Shown: one piece after another, positions 37,241 to 48,024 of the stretch | How positions within the stretch are numbered: the first letter of the stretch is position 1 | How the letters are laid out: each line of letters opens with the position of its first letter | NCBI GenBank assembly: GCA_943787795.1 | Contig: CALSNU010000001.1 | Coordinates: 1,344,001 to 1,408,000 of the forward strand | Direction of reading: 5' to 3' | Source of the DNA: an uncultured bacterium | Lineage (GTDB): Bacteria; Planctomycetota; UBA1135; GCA-002686595 | Length of the DNA: 64,000 bases | Program-made: the position numbers and the translations under genes | The notes under the pieces: model-generated | What the model was told of the DNA's origin: nothing | Database searches by the model: none | Seen by the model: only the letters and a program-made list of their open reading frames with translations

Positions 37241-38326
37241 ATGACCCAGCCTGATTCTTCCGCAAGCTTCCGCTCCGCATCCACCGAGGACCGGGAGGCG
37301 CAGGCCGCCCTGTTCGACCGCTGCTTCAGTCGTGAGGACGGAGGGGAGGTGCTCCCCTGGCGCTACGACCAGGGGCCCCACGGGGCGGCGCTCACCACCG
37401 TCGTGGACGGGGATGAGGGCCTGCTGGCCAGCTACGCCTGCGGCCCGCGTCGCCTCGCGGGGGACCGCGAGGTGCTCGTGGGGGAGACGGGGGACGTCAT
37501 GACCGCCCCCGATGCCCGCGGCGGTGGCCTCTTCTCAGGGCTCGACCGGGCCACCATGGCGGCCGCCCGGGACGCCGGCTGGCCCGTGGTCTTCGGGCTA
37601 CCCAACCGCGCCTCGGCCCACATCTTCGTCCGGGACCTCGGGTGGGAGGAGGTCGGCCAGCTGCGCCCCTGGACGTTCGTCCTCGTGGGGGACGCGGGAG
37701 CCAGGGCTGAGCGGATGAAGGTCAGCCGCCTGGCGGCGGCCACGGTGGCCTGGACCGCGTGGCGAGGGACCATGGCCCGCGGGCGCCTGCGCAAGCGCTT
37801 CTTCGCGCGCTGCAACGTCGTGCCCATCGCGCGCTTCAAGCCCGAGGCCGACGCGGTCGCCGAGGCGGTCGCCGCGCGGCACCCCTGGTTCATCCGTCGG
37901 GACCACGAGTACATGAACTGGCGCTTCGTGGACGCGCCCTCCGGCCGGTTCCGATGCCACGGCGTCTACCAGCCGGACGGGAGCATGTGCGGGTGGTGCG
38001 TCGTGCAGCTGCCGGAGCGCGGTGAGACCGCGGGCTACGTGGTGGACCTCGTGGCCGTCGACGACGTGGCCTTTGCAGCCGCCCTCGAGGCCGGGCTCGG
38101 GCACCTGCGCAAGGCCGGCGCCTCCGTGGCGCGGGCCCACGCGGTCGTGGGGTCGGGCTGGGAACAGGAGCTCAAGGGCTCCGGCTTCCGGCCCTCCAAG
38201 GCCGACGACGTCCGACCCATCATTATGCACGTCCTGGACGAGGGGCACCCGATCTCTGAGGTGGCGCGGCAGCCGTCGAAGTGGTTCTGGACCGACGCGG
38301 ACCGTGACGCGGAGTTGATCGGCTGA
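37241..38326 (+). CDS. GNAT family N-acetyltransferase (tandem GNAT fold)
   Basis: DVMTAPDARGGGLF (motif A), FGLPN, RDHEYMNWRF. Confidence 0.8.
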   Translation: MTQPDSSASFRSASTEDREAQAALFDRCFSREDGGEVLPWRYDQGPHGAALTTVVDGDEGLLASYACGPRRLAGDREVLVGETGDVMTAPDARGGGLFSGLDRATMAAARDAGWPVVFGLPNRASAHIFVRDLGWEEVGQLRPWTFVLVGDAGARAERMKVSRLAAATVAWTAWRGTMARGRLRKRFFARCNVVPIARFKPEADAVAEAVAARHPWFIRRDHEYMNWRFVDAPSGRFRCHGVYQPDGSMCGWCVVQLPERGETAGYVVDLVAVDDVAFAAALEAGLGHLRKAGASVARAHAVVGSGWEQELKGSGFRPSKADDVRPIIMHVLDEGHPISEVARQPSKWFWTDADRDAELIG

Positions 38327-38337
38327 CCGCCGGCGTC

Positions 38338-39423
38338 GTGGGTCTCAAGCACCGGATCAAGGCGGGCCTGCGCGGCCTGTACGCCCGTGTCCTTTGGGGC
38401 ACGGGGCTGCACCGGGTTGTGGACCGATTCTCCCGGCCGCGTCTGCTCGTGCTCTATGGTCACTGCGTCGATCAGCCGAGGACCAACGGCTCCCTCGACG
38501 CGGACATGAAGATCTCAGGGGCCCGCCTCGAGAAGATCCTCGAGACGCTGGGTCGAAGGCACGACCTGGTGACCCTTGGTGAGGGGCTCGAGCGGTTGCG
38601 CAGCGGGCGCGCCGGTCGCTCGATGGTCGCCCTGACCATGGACGACGGGTACCGCGACAACCTCCACGACCTGGTGCCGCTGCTCGAGCGCACGGGGGCG
38701 CGCGCGACGGTCTTCCTCGAGGGAGGCGCCGTGGCCTCGCGCGAGCTCCCCTGGCTCCACGCGCTCGGGTGGCTCGTGGGCCGGCTCGGGGCGACCGAGG
38801 CAGCCGCTCAGGTCGCGGCCAGCCTCGGAGAGGTGCCGGGATCACCGGTTGGCGTCACGGATGCGGGGACGCTGAAGCGCCGGCTCAAGTACGACGCGGA
38901 CCCCGACCGTCGGGACGCGGCGCTGCAGGCGCTGGTCGAGGCGGAGGGAGGAGACCCCGTGCAGATCGTCGACGACCTCTACCTCTCCATGGACGAGGCC
39001 CGGGCGCTGGCAGCGGCCGGCCCCGTGGAGGTGGGCGGGCATACGGCGCATCACCCGGTCCTCGCGAGGCTCGGCGTGGACGCTCAGGAGCGTGAGATCT
39101 CGGGCGGCGCCGCCCTGCTCAGGGAGCTTCTCGACGAGGAGGTCTCCGAGGAGGGCCGGGCGCCCCTCGGGGCCTCGGGGCACGCGTTCGCCTACCCCTA
39201 CGGTCGGCGCTGGGACATCGGTGAGCACAGCCCTGGCGTGGTCGCGGCCGCAGGATACACCTGCGCCGTCACGACCCATGCGGGGGTCAACCATCGGTCG
39301 ACCGATCCGTACCTGCTCAAGCGCTGGCCGATCCACGACGGCACGAGGCTGCACGAGGTGGGTGTGGAGGCCTCGGGCGGCTTCGAGCTGCTGCGCCGTC
39401 TCGGGATCGACCTCGTGGAGTGA
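38338..39423 (+). CDS. Polysaccharide deacetylase (CE4/NodB-like)
   Basis: LTMDDGYRDN, GGHTAHHPVL, FAYPYG. Confidence 0.9.
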   Translation: MGLKHRIKAGLRGLYARVLWGTGLHRVVDRFSRPRLLVLYGHCVDQPRTNGSLDADMKISGARLEKILETLGRRHDLVTLGEGLERLRSGRAGRSMVALTMDDGYRDNLHDLVPLLERTGARATVFLEGGAVASRELPWLHALGWLVGRLGATEAAAQVAASLGEVPGSPVGVTDAGTLKRRLKYDADPDRRDAALQALVEAEGGDPVQIVDDLYLSMDEARALAAAGPVEVGGHTAHHPVLARLGVDAQEREISGGAALLRELLDEEVSEEGRAPLGASGHAFAYPYGRRWDIGEHSPGVVAAAGYTCAVTTHAGVNHRSTDPYLLKRWPIHDGTRLHEVGVEASGGFELLRRLGIDLVE

Positions 39424-39480
39424 ACACGTGGAGTGAACTCGTGGAGTGACCTCGTGGAGTGAACGCGGGGAGTGAACTCG
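39412..39480. repeat. 13-bp tandem repeat, consensus CTCGTGGAGTGAA, 5 copies plus partial
   Basis: Units start at 39412, 39425, 39438, 39451, 39464; the first contains the deacetylase stop codon. Confidence 0.9.
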
Positions 39481-39525
39481 CAGACTCAAGGCGCGGAGCG
39501 AGGCGCTATATCCCACCGGGCGGGG

Positions 39526-39580
39526 CCACACCGCGCTGGACCACACCGCGCTGGACCACACCGCGCTGGACCACACCGCG
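39526..39580. repeat. 15-bp tandem repeat CCACACCGCGCTGGA, 3 exact copies plus 10 bp
   Basis: Read directly from sequence. Confidence 0.92.
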
Positions 39581-39656: not shown

Positions 39657-39785
39657 TCAGTGGGTCTCGTACCCGTCGGGGCCGGAGTAGGCCCCGCCGC
39701 CCGAGGTGTAGAGGTAGACGGCCGCGGCCACGAACACCGCCACGGGGACGGCGATCCAGATCCAGTTCTCGCGAAGAAAGCGCAT
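39657..39785 (-). CDS. 42-aa single-pass membrane peptide, DUF5989-like (not in the ORF track)
   Basis: Manual translation MRFLRENWIWIAVPVAVFVAAAVYLYTSGGGAYSGPDGYETH*; G/C-ending codons; divergent from an SGNH gene. Confidence 0.65.
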   Translation of the reverse strand: MRFLRENWIWIAVPVAVFVAAAVYLYTSGGGAYSGPDGYETH

Positions 39786-39858: not shown

Positions 39859-40986
39859 ATGAAGCGGATCCTGTCTCGACTTGCCCTCTCCGCGGGGGTC
39901 TTTCTCGCCCTGCTCGGTGGTACGGAAGTGGTGCTGCGCGCCCAGGGCTATGGGGCCATCCCCTCCGTGTGGTTCGATCCAGAGGTCGGCACGCGCTTCC
40001 ACCCCGGCCAGACCCGCCAGATCCTCGCCGCCGGCGGCGTCTTCATGCACTCGGCTGAGATCAACGACCTCGGCTTCCGCGGCCGACTGCCGGACCCCGA
40101 GCTCGACGGCGACGGCGGCCTGCGCCTGGTCTGCCTGGGCGACTCGTTCACCTTCGGCTGGGGCGTCGAGGACGCAGACACCTACCCCGTGCAGCTTGAG
40201 GCTGCCCTCGAGGAGCTCCTGGCAGCCCGCGCTGCCGGTGATACGGCGGACTCCGGGCCGCGGCGGAGCCCCGTCGGTGCAGAGGTGCTGAACGTCGGGC
40301 TGCCCGGCTACAACACCTGGCAGGAGCATCGGCTCTACGAGAAGCTCGTTCGACCGATGGCTCCGGATGTGGTGGTCCTGGGTTGGTACCTGAACGACCT
40401 CGACCCGCTGAGCTACGGGGTGACCGGCACCCTGGCGCCCCTCGATCACCCGCTGGCGGGCACCGCGCTGCTGGACTACTGGGTCCGCAAGCTCCGCAAG
40501 AAGTACCCCAAGTTCGAGTTCGAGGGCTTCGACCAGGCGGCCGCGCAGGAGATCAAGCCGTACTACGACAAGAACCGGCCGCTGGTGGAGCACAACAGCG
40601 GCCACCCGGAGGCGAGGCCCTACGTGGAGCGCAACCTCGCGGACCTCGGCGCCCTGCTCGATGACATCAAGGCCGACGGGGTGACCCCCGTGCTGACCAT
40701 CTTCCCGTCGGTGGGCCAGGTCGACGCTCTCAAGGCGGCGCGGGCCGACAAGCCCGCCGCGGAGTACGAGGCGGACCTCGCGATCATCGCGCGCATCCAG
40801 CGCGACCTGACCGAGTTCGTCGGCCTCAAGGGGGTCGCCGTCGTGGACCTCCTCGTGCCGTTCATGGACAGCGAGGTTCGGCCCTACGGTGAGGTGGACC
40901 AGAGCCACCCCAGTGTGCACGGGTACGGGATCGCCGCATGGGCCGTGCTCGAGGCGCTCGTGGCGGGCGGCCTGCTCGACCGCTGA
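39859..40986 (+). CDS. Membrane-anchored SGNH/GDSL hydrolase-fold protein
   Basis: N-terminal anchor ..EVVLR; INDLGFRG; LGDSFTFG, NVGLPGY, YLNDL, DQSHPS. Confidence 0.88.
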   Translation: MKRILSRLALSAGVFLALLGGTEVVLRAQGYGAIPSVWFDPEVGTRFHPGQTRQILAAGGVFMHSAEINDLGFRGRLPDPELDGDGGLRLVCLGDSFTFGWGVEDADTYPVQLEAALEELLAARAAGDTADSGPRRSPVGAEVLNVGLPGYNTWQEHRLYEKLVRPMAPDVVVLGWYLNDLDPLSYGVTGTLAPLDHPLAGTALLDYWVRKLRKKYPKFEFEGFDQAAAQEIKPYYDKNRPLVEHNSGHPEARPYVERNLADLGALLDDIKADGVTPVLTIFPSVGQVDALKAARADKPAAEYEADLAIIARIQRDLTEFVGLKGVAVVDLLVPFMDSEVRPYGEVDQSHPSVHGYGIAAWAVLEALVAGGLLDR

Positions 40987-41125: not shown

Positions 41126-41461
41126 TCAGCGGGGCCGCAGGAGCGACCCGTGCATCCGGGTCACGAAGTCACCGACCTCGGCCGAGCTGGACTCGAGGTG
41201 GCTCGTGAGCTCCTCCAATGGGCGCTCCTCCCAGTAGCCACGCAGGATCAGGGCGTGCATGGCCTGGACCTGGGTGCGCGGGTCGTCCGGGGTCCGTGCC
41301 CGCTCGAGGAGCTCCTCTGTGGTGGGGGCGCCACTCAGGCCCAGGGTGATCGTGATCGCCGCGGCGGCGCCCAGCCCCAGGGCGAGCAGCCACTGCACCG
41401 GGCCCTCGCCGTGCGGCTCGCTTGGGGCGACCTGACCTTGAGGGTCGTCTTCGGGGCTCAT
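41126..41461 (-). CDS. Small hypothetical membrane-anchored protein (111 aa)
   Basis: TGATG coupling to the upstream GT-C gene; one TM segment WLLALGLGAAAAITITLGL. Confidence 0.6.
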   Translation of the reverse strand: MSPEDDPQGQVAPSEPHGEGPVQWLLALGLGAAAAITITLGLSGAPTTEELLERARTPDDPRTQVQAMHALILRGYWEERPLEELTSHLESSSAEVGDFVTRMHGSLLRPR

Positions 41462-42975
41462 CAGAGCTCCTCCAGGGATGCGAGGATCGGGGCGACGGCG
41501 AGGGTCCAGCTCCAGAGGAGCAAGCCGAGGGCGGCGACGAAGAGTGATCGACGGAAGAGCCCGCGCGCTGGAGGGCAGCGCAGGCTCGCCAGCGCAGCGG
41601 CGGCGGGGACGATCAGCAGGGCCTCGCCCGGCGCCCGGAAGCGCGACATGGCCACGACCAGGGCGAGGGGCGCGGTGGCCGCGCATGCGGCGGCGACGAG
41701 CCCCGCGGCTCCCGGAGAGAGCGGCACCATGATGGATCCGTAGGCGGCGAGCAGGAGGAGGGCCAAGACCATGGCGATGGAGACCAGGGTCAGGGGGACG
41801 CTGAACGGCCTGGAGGTCAGGACGCTGCAGTATCCGCCGGTGGCCTTGACGCCCGCGACCTCCGGGTCGGGCGGAGGCATGCGCAGGTAGCGCGTCATGT
41901 AGGACAGCGGCGTGAGCAGGTCGGCCACCTTCACCGCGCGCGTGCGGAGGAAGAAGCCCGTGTGGGCCCTGATGAACGCCCGTCCCGTGGCGACCGCGAG
42001 CCGGTTTCGCTCGGCGACGTCCGGGAGGAACTGGAACCGCCACTGCTCCATGTCCGCGGGCGGCTCCAGGAGGCTCGCGCGGAGCGAGGCTCCCGGTGCG
42101 CCGGCATCGGGGACGTCGAGCCCGACGAGGTCGAAGTTGATGTAGTCGCGGTTCCAGCCCATGTAGGCGTTGAGGCCGGCGGTCCGTCCGAGGAGCTGGA
42201 GGGACCCCAGGTCCGCGCTGGCCCGGGCGGACCAGGGCGCGATCGTCATGGCGGCGGCGCCCAGGAAGAGGACGGCCCGGCGGACTCCCGTGGACCAGCG
42301 CCGCGACTCCAGCTGAGCAGGACGGCCGAGGGAGCAGACGCCCCACAGGCCCAGGGCCCCGAGCCAGAAGAGGCAGGCCTCCTTGGTGAGGCAGGCGAGG
42401 CCGACGGCGAAGCCCGCGCCCACGAGCGCGGCGGTCCCGCGGTGCCCGCGCAGCTCCCCGGCGGCCACCGCCAGCAACAGCGCGCAGGCCGGGAGCAGGA
42501 GGGCGATGGCGAGCCCCTCGCTGAGGAGCACGTGGGCGAAGGGGACCAGCGGCAGGTACAGGGCGGCGACCCACCCCGCCAGTCGACCCGCGCGCTCCGA
42601 GTGGGCGCGGGTGGCGAGCACCATGAGCCACCCGCAGGACCACACCGAGAGGAGGGTCAGGACCACACGGGCGGCGGTCTCCCCAGCCTCGCCGAAGACC
42701 GACACGCAGGCGGCGATCAGCGCCGGGTGCAGGGGGGGCCACTGCCCCGTGTAGGCGCCGAGCTCGGACCAGGCGCGCCCGAGCCCAACGTAGGCGGGTT
42801 CGTCCCCGCGGAAGGCGCCGCCCGCCGCGGACATGAGCCACAGGCCCCGGACCACGGCTGCGCACAGGAGTGGCGCGAGCCAGCCCCCCGGGAGCCAGCG
42901 TGCCTGGCTCGGGTGCTCGGTCGGCGCCGCCACGGGGGGCGGCTCCGCGGGGGCGATGTTGGGGCTGGGCCTCAT
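41461..42975 (-). CDS. Polytopic GT-C glycosyltransferase (ArnT/PMT-like)
   Basis: GDEPAY in first loop, WPPLHP, LLSEGLA, LTKE, SRFRAP; many TM helices. Confidence 0.75.
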   Translation of the reverse strand: MRPSPNIAPAEPPPVAAPTEHPSQARWLPGGWLAPLLCAAVVRGLWLMSAAGGAFRGDEPAYVGLGRAWSELGAYTGQWPPLHPALIAACVSVFGEAGETAARVVLTLLSVWSCGWLMVLATRAHSERAGRLAGWVAALYLPLVPFAHVLLSEGLAIALLLPACALLLAVAAGELRGHRGTAALVGAGFAVGLACLTKEACLFWLGALGLWGVCSLGRPAQLESRRWSTGVRRAVLFLGAAAMTIAPWSARASADLGSLQLLGRTAGLNAYMGWNRDYINFDLVGLDVPDAGAPGASLRASLLEPPADMEQWRFQFLPDVAERNRLAVATGRAFIRAHTGFFLRTRAVKVADLLTPLSYMTRYLRMPPPDPEVAGVKATGGYCSVLTSRPFSVPLTLVSIAMVLALLLLAAYGSIMVPLSPGAAGLVAAACAATAPLALVVAMSRFRAPGEALLIVPAAAALASLRCPPARGLFRRSLFVAALGLLLWSWTLAVAPILASLEEL

Positions 42976-43004
42976 CAGTGATCGCAAGCTACACGATGCC
43001 GCGC

Positions 43005-44426
43005 TCAGCGCAGCGCAGAGAGCGTCTGTTGAACGCCCTCGATGGACGGAACCCACAGCAGGAGCAGCCCGGCGCCGATCACGGTGGCCGCTCGCCGGCG
43101 CGTCTTGCCGTCGTCGGCCCGAGTCCCGATCAGCGCGAGGGCCGCGAACCCGATCAGGAGCGGGAGCGCCGGAAGCCGGTAGCGGCTCATGCCGTTGACG
43201 AGGGCGGAGAGGACGACCACGCCGCTGACGCTCAGGAGAAGGCCGCGGTGGGCGGCGCTCGCCTCCATGGCCCACCAGCCCCGGAGCGCGAGCAGGAGGA
43301 GCGCTGGGACCATGAGGACCGCGCAGGCCGCGAAGGCCAGACGGGCGCCGGCGCCCCCGAGCGGCGGGCCAGGCGACGCGAGCCGAAGGCTGCGGACAGG
43401 GAAGGAGAGCGGGCTCAGCAGGTCCACGAGCTCGACGACGCGGCTCCGAAGGAAGAAGACCGGGTGGCGCGCGGCATAGCGCAGGCCCTGGGTCACATTC
43501 GCCCGGGCTCGCGCTGCGGGCGCGCCCTGACTCTCCGCGCTCCAGGCCTCGGGCGCCGGACCGCGGATCGCCGCTCGCAGGGCGCCGGGGGCCCGGGCAG
43601 GGGCGCCGCCGAGTCCGGCGAGGTCGTAGTTCACGTCGTGGGCATTGAGCCCGACGTGAGCGCTACCGCCGGTGGAGATCGCGATGGGCACCAGCTGCCC
43701 ATGCACGGCGGCGTTGCGCAGGGTCCACGGGAGGATCGTCGCGAGCGAGCAGGCCACCATCGTCAGCGCGAGGGAGGCGCGCGACGCGCCGCCGGCGGCT
43801 CCGTTCCGTGCGAGCCACAGGCCGAGGATGGGAACGAAGAGGAGGCTGCTCTCTCGGACGAGCGCCGCGAGCCCCAGGAGCACGCCCGCGCCCGCTGCTA
43901 CTCGCAGCGAGGCCGCGCTGGAGCGGCGGCTCGCGGCCGCGAGCAGGGCGAGGGCCGGGGTGAAGAGCGCGAGGTGGAGCGGCTCGGAGTAGAGGAGCCC
44001 GGCGAAGCCAGCGAGGGGCAGGTAGAGCGCGGCGATCCACGCGGCGCAGGCGCCGCCGCGGCGGCCGCCGATGATCGCGGCGAGCGCGGCGATCCAGGCG
44101 ACGTTCCACAGCCCGAGCACGACCTGCAGCCCCCGAAGGGCCGCGGTGGAGGCGTCGCCCAGGAGGCCGCCGAGGACGGCGATGAGGGCGGGGTACCCGG
44201 GGGCCCAGATGCCCTCATAGGTGCCCTCGAGGCGCCATCGCTCTCCGAGAAGGAGATAGGCGCGCTCGTCGCCCGCGGGGTCCGTCCCACTGAATGCGAT
44301 CGCCACCGCGATCCGCACGCAGGCGGCCGCCAGGAGCGGCAGCAGCAGGGAGGGCCAGAGGGGACGCTGAAACGAGCCCTCAGCCGCGTCCTCCCTCACC
44401 GCATCGTCCTCTGAGCTGGCATTCAT
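43005..44426 (-). CDS. Polytopic GT-C glycosyltransferase (ArnT/PMT-like), paralog of neighbour
   Basis: GDERAY, WAPGYP, LLYSEPL, LVRE, PWTLRN, SRYRLP. Confidence 0.78.
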   Translation of the reverse strand: MNASSEDDAVREDAAEGSFQRPLWPSLLLPLLAAACVRIAVAIAFSGTDPAGDERAYLLLGERWRLEGTYEGIWAPGYPALIAVLGGLLGDASTAALRGLQVVLGLWNVAWIAALAAIIGGRRGGACAAWIAALYLPLAGFAGLLYSEPLHLALFTPALALLAAASRRSSAASLRVAAGAGVLLGLAALVRESSLLFVPILGLWLARNGAAGGASRASLALTMVACSLATILPWTLRNAAVHGQLVPIAISTGGSAHVGLNAHDVNYDLAGLGGAPARAPGALRAAIRGPAPEAWSAESQGAPAARARANVTQGLRYAARHPVFFLRSRVVELVDLLSPLSFPVRSLRLASPGPPLGGAGARLAFAACAVLMVPALLLLALRGWWAMEASAAHRGLLLSVSGVVVLSALVNGMSRYRLPALPLLIGFAALALIGTRADDGKTRRRAATVIGAGLLLLWVPSIEGVQQTLSALR

Positions 44427-44477: not shown

Positions 44478-46007
44478 TCAGAAGAGCGTGTAGATGAAGG
44501 GGGCCACCAGCGGCGAGGAGGCCGCCACGACCAGCAGGCTGCCGACGCTGAGCAGCACGCTCAGCAGCGGCATCAGGTACCAGTGCCCGCGCAGGGTGAA
44601 GGACCGCAGAAGCTCCGCGATGGTGCCAATCCGGTCTCCGAGCTTGAACAGGACGAAGGTCAGGATGGTCAGCAGGAGGCCGAGGATCGTCAGCTGGGAG
44701 GCCTGGGGTGGGAGCGCCTCCACGAGCCACGTCACGCCGAGGCCCGTGCTGAAGACCACGGCGAGGAGGGCGGCGACGCTGCCGAAGCCAACGAGCGCGC
44801 TCTCGTCCGGATACGTCCGCCTGTATAGGGTTCCGAGCGCGCCCGTCAGAGCCAGATACCAGAGGACCCAGACGGGCACCTGGCCGCTGCTCTTCACGGG
44901 TCCTGTGGGGAGAGTCTGCGACGCGCCCTCGCCAAGGGGAGGAAGGAGCTTCGCGCCTTCCAGCGCCCCGTGGAGGGAGACGGCGAGCGCGACGTTGCCG
45001 TCGGCGTTGAGGTGGAAGTCCCGTCGGTAGTAGGGCGGGGCCTCTGCCGCGAAGGACTCGATGGCGACCAGCGGGTCGAAGACCATGGCGCCCGTCGCCC
45101 GCGCGGCCTCGATGAAGAGCGCATGGGGCCGCGCCGGGTCCAGGGGGGCGCCGGCGACCGCGGGCGGGGCGCTCGCCTGGGTCTTCGAGGGGATCGGGCA
45201 CACGGCGAAGCGCGCGCCGAGGGCCTCGCAGCGCGCTGACATGGCGGCGATCAGGGCGCGGGTGCGAGTCTCGGCTTCTAGGACCGCAGGCGGCGGGTCC
45301 GTCAGCCGTGAGGAGAGCTCTGCGGAGAGCGTGATCTCTCCCGACGTGATGAGGGGCACGCTCGGGGCGCCGCGGAGTCGATACCAGGCCTCTCCGAGGG
45401 CGGAGCGGCGGCTCCAGTGCCGGGCTGGTGGCGACGCGAGGCTTCGCTCTACGAGGACGCCTTCGCTGTCGTAGAGGGGCTTGTCCTGGCCGAGGTAGGT
45501 GGGGCTTTGATTCCACCAGATGTCGTTCTCGTAGGCGAAGTAGACGACCAGGTCAGGGGCGACCGCCTCACCGTTCAACTCGAGCCATCGCAGGGACTGA
45601 TCGGTGGAGTACCCCTGGGTCCCCGCGTTCATGATCTCCACCGGGCGGCCCTCGATCTGCAGGGCCCGCTCGAGCTGGTCCACGAAGAGGTCCTCGCGGT
45701 CCACGGTGTACCCGACCACGAAGGAGTCCCCGAGAAAGAGCGCGCGCCGGGTGCCCTCAGGCGCCGGTGCGAGGGCGTCGTAGTCGTCCCGGAGCCCCGC
45801 GCCGTCGTTGGTGAGCGTGACGTCGTACTCGCCGGTCGAGCGCTCGATGGTCTTGCCGGGGGTCTTCCGCCAGCCGAGCTCTGGGTCGAACTCCGTGTTG
45901 ACCACCGTCGGCGTGAAGCCGAGCGCGCGGAGGCCGAGCTCGGTGACCCCGAGGGCGATGCCGGCGGTGACGAGCAGCGCGAGGATGACGTTGAGGGTCT
46001 TCATCAC
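44478..46007 (-). CDS. SGNH hydrolase-fold protein fused to C-terminal TM helices and a DUF5989 (SxtK-like) tail
   Basis: DPELGW, FLGDSF, NAGTQGYST, YENDI, DFHLN; ends HWYLMPLLSVLL...SPLVAPFIYTLF. Confidence 0.85.
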   Translation of the reverse strand: MMKTLNVILALLVTAGIALGVTELGLRALGFTPTVVNTEFDPELGWRKTPGKTIERSTGEYDVTLTNDGAGLRDDYDALAPAPEGTRRALFLGDSFVVGYTVDREDLFVDQLERALQIEGRPVEIMNAGTQGYSTDQSLRWLELNGEAVAPDLVVYFAYENDIWWNQSPTYLGQDKPLYDSEGVLVERSLASPPARHWSRRSALGEAWYRLRGAPSVPLITSGEITLSAELSSRLTDPPPAVLEAETRTRALIAAMSARCEALGARFAVCPIPSKTQASAPPAVAGAPLDPARPHALFIEAARATGAMVFDPLVAIESFAAEAPPYYRRDFHLNADGNVALAVSLHGALEGAKLLPPLGEGASQTLPTGPVKSSGQVPVWVLWYLALTGALGTLYRRTYPDESALVGFGSVAALLAVVFSTGLGVTWLVEALPPQASQLTILGLLLTILTFVLFKLGDRIGTIAELLRSFTLRGHWYLMPLLSVLLSVGSLLVVAASSPLVAPFIYTLF

Positions 46008-46014
46008 GGACGGT

Positions 46015-47805
46015 TCAGGACACCATCTGGGTCACGGAGTCGCCGTCGTGGCGCAGGTGGAAGGTCGTCTCGGCGATCTTCTTCTTGGCGCTCGCCTCGA
46101 CGATGAAGTTGTTCATGAACAGGAAGTCCATGCCCGACAGCGAGAACGTGTTGAAGGCGTGGGCGGGCGACTCGACGATGGGCTCGCCCTTGAGGTTGAA
46201 CGAGGTGTTCATGATCACCGGCACGTCGGTGAGCTCGCCAAAGCGCTCGATGATGCGGTGGTAGGCCGGGTTGGTCTGGCGGTAGACCGTCTGGAGCCTG
46301 CCGGAGCCGTCCTCGTGGGTGATCGCTGGCAGCACGTCGCGCTTCTCCTCGCGCACGGGCGCCACGTAGAGCATGAAGCGCGCGGGCCAGTGCCGCTCGG
46401 GCTCGGGGATGTCAAAGAACTCGTCCGCGCGCTCCTCGATCACCGACGGCGCGAAGGGCCGGAAGGACTCGCGGAACTTGATCTTCGAGTTGAGCTTCTC
46501 CTTCATCTCCATGCGCCTTGGGTCGGCGATGATGGAGCGGCTGCCCAGGGCCCGTGGACCCCACTCGCAGCGGCCGCGCATCCAGCCGCAGACGTGGCCC
46601 GACTCCAGGGTCCGCGCAACGAAGTCGAAGAACTCTTCGTCGTCCGAGATCTTGCGATAGGGGATGTCGTTCGCCTCGAGGAACGACTGGATGGAGTCGT
46701 CCCCGTGCTCGCTGCCCAGGTACGCGTGCTCCAGGGCCGGGCCCCGCGGTTGGTCGAGCAGGTGGTTGTAGGCCCAGTAGGCGGCGCCGGCCGAGCACCC
46801 GTCGTCGCCGGGAGCGGGGTGGATGTAGACGTCCTCGAAGGGCCCCTCGCGCATCAGCTTGTAGTTGGCCACCGAGTTCAGGGCCACGCCGCCGGCGAGG
46901 CAGAGCTTCTTGAGCCCCGTGATCTCGTGCAGGTGCGTGATCATCTTCAGCAGGATCTCCTCGGTGACCCGCTGGATGCTCGCGGCCATGTCGCAGTAGT
47001 ACGGGTCTAGCGAGGTGTCCTGATGCTTCGGGTCTCGGCGTGGCCGGCCGAAGTGCGCCTCGAAGAGCGGGCTCAGGGTGTCGTTGGTCGAGTGGTGGTA
47101 CTTGAAGTACCGCATGTCGTGCCAGAGTGACCCGTCCTCGGCGACATCGAGGAGCTTGTAGATCTCGTCGCAGTACTTCGGCTCACCGTAGGGGTGCATC
47201 CCCATGAGCTTGTATTCGCCCTCGTTGATCTCGAAGCCGCAGTACGCAGTGAAGGCAGAGTAGAGCAGGCCGAGGGAGTGCGGGAAGCGCATCTCCTTGA
47301 GGACCTCGATCTTGTTCCCGCGACCGACGGCCATGGTGGAGGTGGTCCACTCACCCGCGCCGTCGACGGTGAGGATCGCGGCCTCCTCGAAGGGCGACGT
47401 GTAGAAGCTCGACGCCGCGTGGGAGACGTGGTGGTCCGCGAAGAGGAACTTGGAGCGCGGCACCTCGAGGCGCTTGCTCATCATCGACTTGATCCAGAGC
47501 TTGTCCGAGATCCAGCGCTGCATGGACTCCCGGAAGACCGCTGCGCTCTTCGGGAACGTGGCCATGGCGGTGAGCAGCATGCGCTCGAACTTCACGAAGG
47601 GCTTCTCGTAGAAGACCACGTAGTCCACGTCGTGGATCGTGATGCCACCCTGCTTCAGGCAGAACTCGATGGCGAGTTCGGGAAAGCCTGAGTCGTGCTT
47701 CTTGCGGCTGAAGCGCTCCTCCGCGGAGGCCGCCACGAGCACACCGTTCTTCACCAGTGCGGCGGCAGAGTCGTGGTAGTAGAAGGAGAGGCCGAGGACG
47801 TTCAT
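46015..47805 (-). CDS. O-carbamoyltransferase (NodU/CmcH/TobZ family)
   Basis: YHDSAAAL..EERFSRKKHD, HHVSHAAS, DGAGE, GEYKLMG, GGVALN, GPRALGSRS, KFRESFRPFAP, NTSFN. Confidence 0.95.
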   Translation of the reverse strand: MNVLGLSFYYHDSAAALVKNGVLVAASAEERFSRKKHDSGFPELAIEFCLKQGGITIHDVDYVVFYEKPFVKFERMLLTAMATFPKSAAVFRESMQRWISDKLWIKSMMSKRLEVPRSKFLFADHHVSHAASSFYTSPFEEAAILTVDGAGEWTTSTMAVGRGNKIEVLKEMRFPHSLGLLYSAFTAYCGFEINEGEYKLMGMHPYGEPKYCDEIYKLLDVAEDGSLWHDMRYFKYHHSTNDTLSPLFEAHFGRPRRDPKHQDTSLDPYYCDMAASIQRVTEEILLKMITHLHEITGLKKLCLAGGVALNSVANYKLMREGPFEDVYIHPAPGDDGCSAGAAYWAYNHLLDQPRGPALEHAYLGSEHGDDSIQSFLEANDIPYRKISDDEEFFDFVARTLESGHVCGWMRGRCEWGPRALGSRSIIADPRRMEMKEKLNSKIKFRESFRPFAPSVIEERADEFFDIPEPERHWPARFMLYVAPVREEKRDVLPAITHEDGSGRLQTVYRQTNPAYHRIIERFGELTDVPVIMNTSFNLKGEPIVESPAHAFNTFSLSGMDFLFMNNFIVEASAKKKIAETTFHLRHDGDSVTQMVS

Positions 47806-47814
47806 GGTGGGCGG

Positions 47815-48024
47815 TCAGTCCTGGTGCCGGGCGGCGGCCACGTCCTCGTTCGTGCTCTCCCACTTGGTCCAGTTCCCCGCTTGGCGCCGCTTGAGGTGCA
47901 GCGGGTCGCAGACGCGCTGATACACGAGCGCGACGGGGCCGAGCACACCGTAGTAGAGGGCCGTCAGCAGTAGCCTCGAGACCATGCTGCCGAAGCGTTC
48001 CGTGAACTGAGCGAGGGCTTGCAT
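47815..48024 (-). CDS. Small membrane protein, SxtJ-like
   Basis: SRLLLTALYYGVLGPVAL..DPLHL..W pattern; directly upstream of the carbamoyltransferase. Confidence 0.7.
   Translation of the reverse strand: MQALAQFTERFGSMVSRLLLTALYYGVLGPVALVYQRVCDPLHLKRRQAGNWTKWESTNEDVAAARHQD

Follow-up and report, generated by a model that had tools for sequence, protein, structure and literature searches.

A Planctomycetota operon joining a TobZ-type carbamoyltransferase to an SGNH-DUF5989 fusion protein: a candidate tyrosine-shuttle acyl relay

Introduction

DltX and the C-termini of PatA-type membrane-bound O-acyltransferases (MBOATs) carry the motif FXYXXF, whose tyrosine takes the acyl group to the serine of an SGNH protein (PMC12148441). 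Another set of families, comprising the products of sxtI/sxtJ/sxtK/sxtL, is known from the cyanobacterial saxitoxin cluster, and the papers describing this cluster give SxtJ and SxtK as unknown or hypothetical (PMC2684587, PMC2679770). This agrees with an earlier reading of the present DNA, made from the letters alone (hereafter, the sequence-only reading), which knew of no assigned mechanism for either protein. Herein, we describe an operon of three genes that brings the same four families together in a window of 64,000 nucleotides from an uncultured bacterium of the phylum Planctomycetota (contig CALSNU010000001.1, positions 1,344,001 to 1,408,000; assembly GCA_943787795.1). The operon encodes the C-terminal half of SxtJ, a TobZ/GdmN-type O-carbamoyltransferase and a protein in which an SGNH domain is fused to a DUF5989 (SxtK) segment ending in a tyrosine tail. 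Our results show that this is a real and conserved system, and we think it probable that it works as a tyrosine-shuttle acyl relay with a loader unrelated to MBOATs.

The operon resembles several described systems and coincides with none of them. Like DltX/DltB/DltD, it has a single membrane helix ending in FXYXXF, with a tyrosine predicted here to face outward, and an SGNH serine as the partner (PMC12148441). In contrast to Dlt, however, the operon lacks an MBOAT, a ligase and a carrier protein; it has a soluble carbamoyltransferase together with SxtJ instead, and the peptide is fused to the SGNH domain. PatA/PatB and the AlgI-type systems also have a C-terminal helix with FxYxxF, but there the tail belongs to the loader and the donor is acetyl-CoA, whereas in the operon the tail belongs to the SGNH deliverer and the donor would be carbamoyl-AMP. 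The system thus falls outside both the MBOAT-SGNH and the DltX families: the C-terminal tyrosine motif and the SGNH triad are there, while an MBOAT at the locus and PF12459 are not. The carbamoyltransferase shares its two-domain fold, catalytic histidine and metal ligands with the O-carbamoyltransferases TobZ, GdmN, NovN and WapO. Unlike in the sxt cluster as it has been described, SxtK and an SxtL-like SGNH domain form one protein and SxtJ is halved. Finally, the closest solved fold of the SGNH domain is CgnD (PDB 8A2N; model residues 26-352), the SGNH hydrolase of a crocagin cluster that also has a carbamoyltransferase, but identity is 14% and the cluster table lists no SxtJ/K-like annotation (PMC10070186). 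The supposition that this cluster holds SxtJ/K homologues was dropped on the strength of the descriptions in the supplement, where CgnJ is called a methyltransferase and CgnK has 12% likeness to a nuclease inhibitor (PMC10070186).

The main text of PMC12148441 does not contain "carbamoyl", "DUF" or "sxt". We found no published paper naming DUF5989 and, judging by titles and the beginnings of abstracts, none describing an acyl shuttle of a carbamoyltransferase or such a relay, most subscription papers being outside the search.

Results and Discussion

The operon and its carbamoyltransferase

The three open reading frames (ORFs) all lie on the minus strand, separated by gaps of 7-9 bases, and a GC content at third codon positions of 0.89-0.95 identifies each of them as a coding frame. 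The tight operon of the sequence-only reading was thereby confirmed, positions included. The frames correspond to the half-SxtJ peptide (69 aa, 47815-48024), the soluble carbamoyltransferase (596 aa, 46015-47805) and the fusion protein (508 aa, 44478-46004; the open frame runs to 46004/46007, and residues are numbered from the ATG of the 508-aa form). Genome-wide, we counted one carbamoyltransferase, one DUF5989 above the cut-off and three unlinked MBOATs, which sit on other contigs and each end in their own FxYxxF tail. Consequently, the description "MBOAT-free" is correct for the operon but not for the genome. Metatranscriptome contigs (four runs of one study) overlap parts of the region, with strand and level not shown and DNA admixture possible.

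The 596-aa protein contains both domains of TobZ/NodU/CmcH-type enzymes (PF02543, E 1.5e-84; PF16861, E 3.6e-67), including the catalytic histidine and the metal ligands, and its model fold matches GdmN, NovN and TobZ with Z 43-44.6. His11, His125, His129, Asp148 and Asp334 are invariant in 93 sequences, and His11 aligns with His27 of GdmN, the catalytic base of that enzyme (PMC9633730). No hydrophobic segment rises above the hydropathy threshold. The intact NodU/TobZ-type enzyme lacking a signal peptide, as it had been proposed, is what the gene encodes; against the NodU equivalog NF041651 it reached 157 bits, the cut-off being 1000. Carbamoyltransferases linked to DUF5989 have in common the segment KP..KF.R...P.....F......W...KL (residues 68-103, amphipathic helices), which begins with the most amphipathic helix of the enzyme. 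This segment is a feature of the DUF5989-linked enzymes; it differs or is missing in L163, an enzyme copy unlinked to DUF5989, as well as in NovN and GdmN, a contrast built on these three comparisons with the L162 enzyme frame left out. It may well contact the membrane or a partner protein.

The 69-aa peptide matches no Pfam family. In hhalign it aligns with SxtJ (full-length family PF19588) at probability 97.5 and E 8e-12, and it corresponds to the C-terminal half of that protein. As full-length SxtJ with its N-terminal membrane helices is absent from the operon, the SxtJ-like peptide of the sequence-only reading stands as a homologue, but one reduced to the C-terminal half. The half-SxtJ gene adjoins 16 of 17 other fusion genes, and the 17th fusion is on a contig of 2.6 kb. 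The half-SxtJ is a likely membrane dock for the carbamoyltransferase.

The fusion protein

Pfam finds PF13472 (Lipase_GDSL_2), PF16822 (ALGX) and PF19451 (DUF5989) in the fusion protein, the last passing its cut-off with 42.4 bits vs 27. In the AlphaFold2 model (pLDDT 91, pTM 0.87), an N-terminal anchor helix is followed by the SGNH domain (residues ~28-360, 44925-45923), predicted to be periplasmic, then by a three-helix membrane bundle (residues 378-455, 44640-44873) and the DUF5989/SxtK segment (44478-44627), which consists of an amphipathic helix, the last membrane helix and a low-confidence tail containing FIYTLF (pLDDT 54-64). The end of the gene, APFIYTLF-stop, occupies 44478-44504, and the codon of Tyr505, the proposed carrier, lies at 44490-44492. 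The sequence-only reading had described four membrane helices ending in this tail; the tail is where it was placed, while the first helix (378-397) spans 20 residues in the model and falls below the hydropathy threshold.

A homologue search scored 8000 proteins, of which 524 reached E<=0.001, and the close relatives are labelled Planctomycetota. Ser94, Asn160 and His331 are invariant in all 116 aligned fusions, and position 329 is Asp in 109 of them and Glu in seven, so that an SGNH protein with intact catalytic residues is indeed fused to DUF5989, as had been claimed. The tail APFIYTLF recurs in 118 of the 120 homologues listed, the other two being one APLIYTLF and one partial protein. With CgnD as the closest solved fold (Z 21.2, root-mean-square deviation 3.8, 244 aligned; next row Z 16.6), PatB follows at Z 13.5; DltD is not among the matches listed, which is not evidence of difference.

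The fusion recurs in 17 other genomes from four families of Planctomycetota (17 of 40 loci taken from the sample of the phylum, where we selected for long contigs or long open frames). Two more natural fusions bring the types to three. One family (L221, L222, L224) has a bundle-DUF5989 protein of 149-159 aa without SGNH behind the half-SxtJ and the enzyme, and one close group joins full SxtJ in frame with DUF5989 in fusions of 195-199 aa (seven proteins: P0345, P0348-P0350, P0352, P0360, P0380). Shuffled among chains in this manner, the parts would therefore resemble subunits of one membrane complex. From its co-occurrence with the half-SxtJ, the three-helix bundle likely takes the place of the N-half of SxtJ, with no likeness in sequence; the idea that it is this N-half, relocated, was dropped, as the profiles show no likeness (hhalign probability 1). 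A complex prediction with the carbamoyltransferase, half-SxtJ, fusion residues 368-507 and AMP scored 0.82, and 0.74 in a control with the third chain replaced. It gave no contacts, and we use these scores neither for nor against a relay.

The tail tyrosine and its side of the membrane

Tallies of tails made with the pattern or with the full profile are not independent, since both contain the motif. A profile without the last seven columns was run on 11960 ORF ends; the loci themselves had first been identified by the Pfam model. It retrieved 85 distinct tails. Of these, 79 have Tyr as the fourth residue from the end and six have it shifted by one place, whereas Phe closes only 72 of them. In genomes with several copies the peptides are divergent and their tails conserve little besides Tyr, and several such peptides directly adjoin SGNH genes. 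Of 150 proteins, 16 have C-terminal extensions with unrelated tails, which we read as stop-codon errors. The tyrosine is the one residue kept throughout the DUF5989 family: its conservation, on which the sequence-only reading had staked its claim, extends to 116 of 116 aligned fusions (Tyr505) and, within one place, to 85 of 85 tails from the motif-free profile.

The same reading put the tail on the side of the SGNH domain by counting helices, an argument that is soft when used alone because helix 378-397 missed the hydropathy threshold. Separate support comes from charge bias: in 39 standalone DUF5989 peptides, a mean of 2.8 Lys/Arg residues precede the last helix and 0 follow it. Two predictions, this positive-inside bias and the model helices, agree in placing the tail on the outer face.

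Conservation of the locus

Of 301 genomes sampled from the phylum, 144 encode DUF5989, and a profile search returned 6168 clusters at 50% identity. Using the pattern APFIYTLF, we selected 80 loci that span many phyla and counted SGNH and MBOAT there with our own profiles over all ORFs. The carbamoyltransferase was present at 67 of them, SxtJ at 69, SGNH at 44 and MBOAT at four; for the 43 full 16-kb loci, the respective numbers were 40, 40, 25 and four. In the source genome, the background is 79 of 2296 windows (3.4%) for SGNH and 24 of 2296 (1%) for MBOAT. Counts across the full loci therefore define a core of enzyme, SxtJ and SxtK; SGNH is strongly enriched at DUF5989 loci, yet not core. A neighbourhood survey for the absence of MBOAT, which the sequence-only reading had suggested, came out in its favour, as MBOAT is missing from 37 of the 40 full loci that encode the enzyme. 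Three full loci have no enzyme, and in both genomes searched it is encoded elsewhere.

Pairwise comparison at 34 loci gave a clear contrast: 561 of 561 enzyme pairs align, with a median identity of 60.6%, vs 233 of 561 pairs of SGNH neighbours with a median of 27.7%. Such a contrast would fit a constant loader with one acceptor and variable deliverers with many. A Pfam scan of 136 of the 270 neighbours selected brought out no conserved family of carriers or flippases.

Some loci depart from this pattern. A divergent carbamoyltransferase stands with a DUF5989 peptide and SGNH at L209 and L210, and no SxtJ was detected there within 12.5 kb. DUF5989-like peptides with no carbamoyltransferase nearby, and mostly no adjacent SGNH, were seen at L033, L034, L040, L211, L213, L214 and L220; these peptides adjoin a nucleotidyltransferase (PF01467) or HtrA-like protease gene. 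In the cyanobacterial loci L107, L120, L122 and L145, 3-5 tandem SGNH paralogues follow a single SxtJ/DUF5989 pair. AlgI-type MBOAT-SGNH genes lie less than 8 kb from the DUF5989 gene at L072, L085, L087, L103 and L150, which suggests acetyl and carbamoyl decoration of one polymer.

Likeness to DltX and MBOAT tails

The fusion tail matches the FXYXXF shuttle motif. By hhalign, DUF5989 aligns with AlgI-type MBOAT tails with probability 93.7, with gaps (27 tails from MBOAT loci, one of them a free peptide), and the enzyme-linked DUF5989 aligns with a branch of MBOAT-linked peptides with probability 94 over 36 ungapped columns. For DltX itself the probability is 16, and this comparison rests on one sequence because only one of the 20 pattern matches in our DltX search was a true DltX. 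A search with 46 DUF5989 peptides at E<=10 gave 30 families, and PF12459 (DltX) was not one of the 25 listed; nor did it match the fusion at E<=0.05. Against PDB sequences, the DUF5989 profile made one chance match (E 1.6). The profile comparison proposed in the sequence-only reading, where DUF5989 was taken for a DltX analogue, thus favours the idea through the AlgI-type tails and through a link to tail-less MBOATs, while the likeness to DltX is limited to the motif. As an analogy drawn by comparison, the reading of DUF5989 as a counterpart of DltX is well supported.

The tail-less MBOATs belong to a cluster found beside one of the fusion operons (L053/L223), which comprises an AMP-binding enzyme, an acyl carrier protein, the MBOAT, a short tyrosine peptide and an SGNH-TPR protein. 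This Dlt-like five-gene cluster is conserved at L053:246-5342, L223, L227-L239, L241, L258, L282, L283, L285 and L286, with tyrosine peptides of 37-68 aa. Among relatives of the MBOAT, FxYxxF is absent wherever the end is present (21 of 22 loci), and a tyrosine peptide adjoins the MBOAT at 17 of 22 loci, two of which share one sequence. Four of the five misses are at contig ends, and the fifth genome has a peptide-SGNH pair on another contig. DUF5989-like peptides lie within 1.5 kb of six of seven tail-less MBOATs vs one of 26 tail-bearing ones; the six include L258, which branches off far from the others at 35% identity. The branch was found by construction, as the profile behind the counts of 17/22 and 6/7 included its members. 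Two tests do not depend on that profile: the hhalign match of probability 94 given above, and the Pfam result of one branch member, the L217 peptide, which passes the PF19451 cut-off (28.9 vs 27 bits). The spacing from Pro to Tyr is 25 in all 16 distinct members vs 24-26 in DUF5989. It appears from these sequences that DUF5989-like peptides fill the DltX slot of the Dlt-like cluster, by descent or by convergence, both being possible. In three genomes, the cluster lies within ~12 kb of the carbamoyltransferase operon.

A proposed relay and its alternatives

Such evidence induces us to propose a relay from carbamoyl-AMP to Tyr505, from there to Ser94 of the SGNH domain and on to an acceptor outside the cytoplasm, a path to which we give somewhat better than even credence. 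In the cytoplasm, the enzyme would use ATP and carbamoyl phosphate to form carbamoyl-AMP, as is established for its family, its catalytic residues being intact. The half-SxtJ, the bundle and the enzyme's own helices 68-103 would then dock it on the inner side of the membrane. In the next step, the weakest of all, the mobile hydrophobic tail would dip into a groove of the bundle, where Tyr505 would be carbamoylated with His11 as the base; with the tail loaded there, enzyme and SxtJ would do the job of the MBOAT. By analogy with DltX/DltD and PatA/PatB, the tail might subsequently swing out and pass the group to Ser94, leaving the SGNH domain to select the acceptor. Several peptide-SGNH pairs in a genome probably share one loader. 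It is tempting to go further and regard DUF5989 peptides as plug-in tyrosine shuttles for two unrelated loaders, the TobZ-type enzyme with SxtJ and, in Dlt-like systems of diderms, the tail-less MBOAT with ligase and carrier, one loader feeding several pairs; this wider scheme is possible, and we hold to it more tentatively than to the relay itself.

Several observations weigh against the relay. The active site is cytoplasmic and the tail is predicted to face outward; the SxtJ/bundle unit would therefore have to supply a path between them resembling the funnel of an MBOAT. When the last seven residues are removed, hhalign probabilities collapse to 21 for the MBOAT-linked peptides, 6 for the MBOAT tails and 0.2 for DltX, so the motif may be convergent. 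Moreover, the loci were found with profiles or patterns containing the motif, and related genomes are not independent. An SGNH gene is absent within ~8 kb in 18 of the 43 full loci, and the bundle-DUF5989 protein of one family lacks the SGNH domain, so the SGNH partner would in many cases need to be encoded at a distant site. Unlike in the transferase PatB (PMC12148441), the SGNH domain of the fusion retains the ordinary block II Gly (94 of 116 homologues; Ala in 22). Nor do the described relatives point to a relay: as reported, carbamoyltransferase-family enzymes act directly on the acceptor in a buried site (PMC9633730), the neighbours seen for the putative WapO, which carbamoylates a lipopolysaccharide heptose, include no such partners (PMC8005017), SxtL was proposed to remove carbamoyl groups as a decarbamoylase (PMC2679770), and CgnD is reported to be a slow leader-peptide protease (PMC10070186).

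A good part of these points would suit direct carbamoylation on the cytoplasmic side of the membrane, the acceptor being a small molecule or a lipid-linked sugar, with SxtJ and DUF5989 as an anchor, the tail as a docking element and SGNH trimming or recycling carbamoyl outside. Direct transfer has precedent in the family and is the mode assumed for WapO (PMC8005017, PMC9633730); it needs no membrane crossing, and it agrees with SxtL as a decarbamoylase, with the loci devoid of SGNH and with the ordinary Gly. It leaves unexplained why the tyrosine is retained while its tail neighbours drift, why a similar peptide stands beside tail-less MBOATs and why the enzyme is conserved across very different neighbourhoods, and we consider it unlikely. 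The topology problem would also vanish if the tyrosine were a shuttle loaded in some other way, either after a carbamate on a lipid or small molecule has crossed the membrane, or by a distant MBOAT, possibly with another acyl group. The genome does have three MBOATs, MBOATs occur at 4/43 loci vs ~1% in the background, and the Dlt-like cluster comes close to the operon in the three genomes mentioned. Nevertheless, all three MBOATs have a tail of their own, nearly all full loci with the enzyme lack an MBOAT and the neighbours scanned brought out no conserved carrier or flippase; such loading seems to us slightly less likely again.

That the relay serves an exported small molecule or peptide instead of an envelope glycan, or that the tail is cytoplasmic and all steps take place inside, we regard as improbable. 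The presence of the four families in a toxin cluster (PMC2684587, PMC2679770) and the closeness of the fold to CgnD, from a peptide-product cluster with a carbamoyltransferase, speak for this reading, as does the weak hydropathy of the first of the four helices. However, the charge bias places the tail outside, and the neighbours are glycosyltransferase, deacetylase, GNAT and GT-C-like genes, of kinds that recur at other loci; among the neighbours scanned, no other toxin-cluster gene was recognised. Besides, CgnJ and CgnK are listed as unrelated to Sxt proteins, and other clusters of the crocagin kind are described without a carbamoyltransferase (PMC10070186).

If the tyrosine-shuttle relay is true, it represents a route for carbamoylating molecules outside the cytoplasm, with an enzymatic carbamoyl-tyrosine intermediate. 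Tyrosine-shuttle chemistry would then extend beyond MBOAT and AT3 loaders, adding a third loader class for trans-membrane acyl relays; SxtJ and SxtK would gain roles, and SxtL-like proteins would be recast as transferases. DUF5989 loci span many phyla besides Planctomycetota, and the fusion presents tail and SGNH site in a single chain. The tail-less MBOAT clusters are a separate lead, towards Dlt-like aminoacyl or acyl transfer in Planctomycetota.

Neighbouring genes and further tyrosine peptides

Directly behind the fusion gene, two tandem multi-pass membrane proteins without a Pfam family, GT-C-like by inspection, occupy 41461-44426 on the minus strand. The nearer one (43005-44426, 11 hydrophobic segments) has no Pfam or NCBIfam match at E<=0.05; it is probably co-transcribed with the operon and may be a maker of the acceptor. 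The second (41461-42975, minus strand, eight hydrophobic segments) weakly resembles oligosaccharyl and glycopolymer transferases, its NCBIfam matches to TIGR04154 (E 0.0014) and NF046093 (E 0.0045) both being far under the cut-off. Other neighbours of the operon include a deacetylase, GNAT, a B12 radical SAM protein and GT4. Judging by these glycosyltransferase-like genes, the acceptor would most likely be a surface glycan. The GNAT and polysaccharide-deacetylase genes form a pair on the plus strand (37241-38326 and 38338-39423), and by inspection such a pair is near the fusion operon in up to seven related loci. At ~39430-39570 there are tandem arrays of a ~15-base unit (x3-4) and of a ~11-12-base unit (x~6).

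A second SGNH/tyrosine-peptide pair sits 3.5 kb from the carbamoyltransferase operon. It consists of a 42-aa peptide with Tyr fourth from the end (39657-39785, minus strand), head to head with the gene of a 375-aa SGNH protein (39859-40986, plus strand; PF13472, E 4.6e-11), which has an N-terminal anchor, GDSF and DQSH and is 35% identical over 186 columns to the SGNH domain of the fusion. The peptide has no Pfam match and scores weakly with our broadened DUF5989 profile (E 0.019); we propose it as a candidate second shuttle. Two more divergent tyrosine peptides are encoded on other contigs of the same genome, both on the minus strand: one on contig C2 (248433-248549), with no SGNH gene nearby, and one on contig C3 (21344-21484), directly after an SGNH gene.

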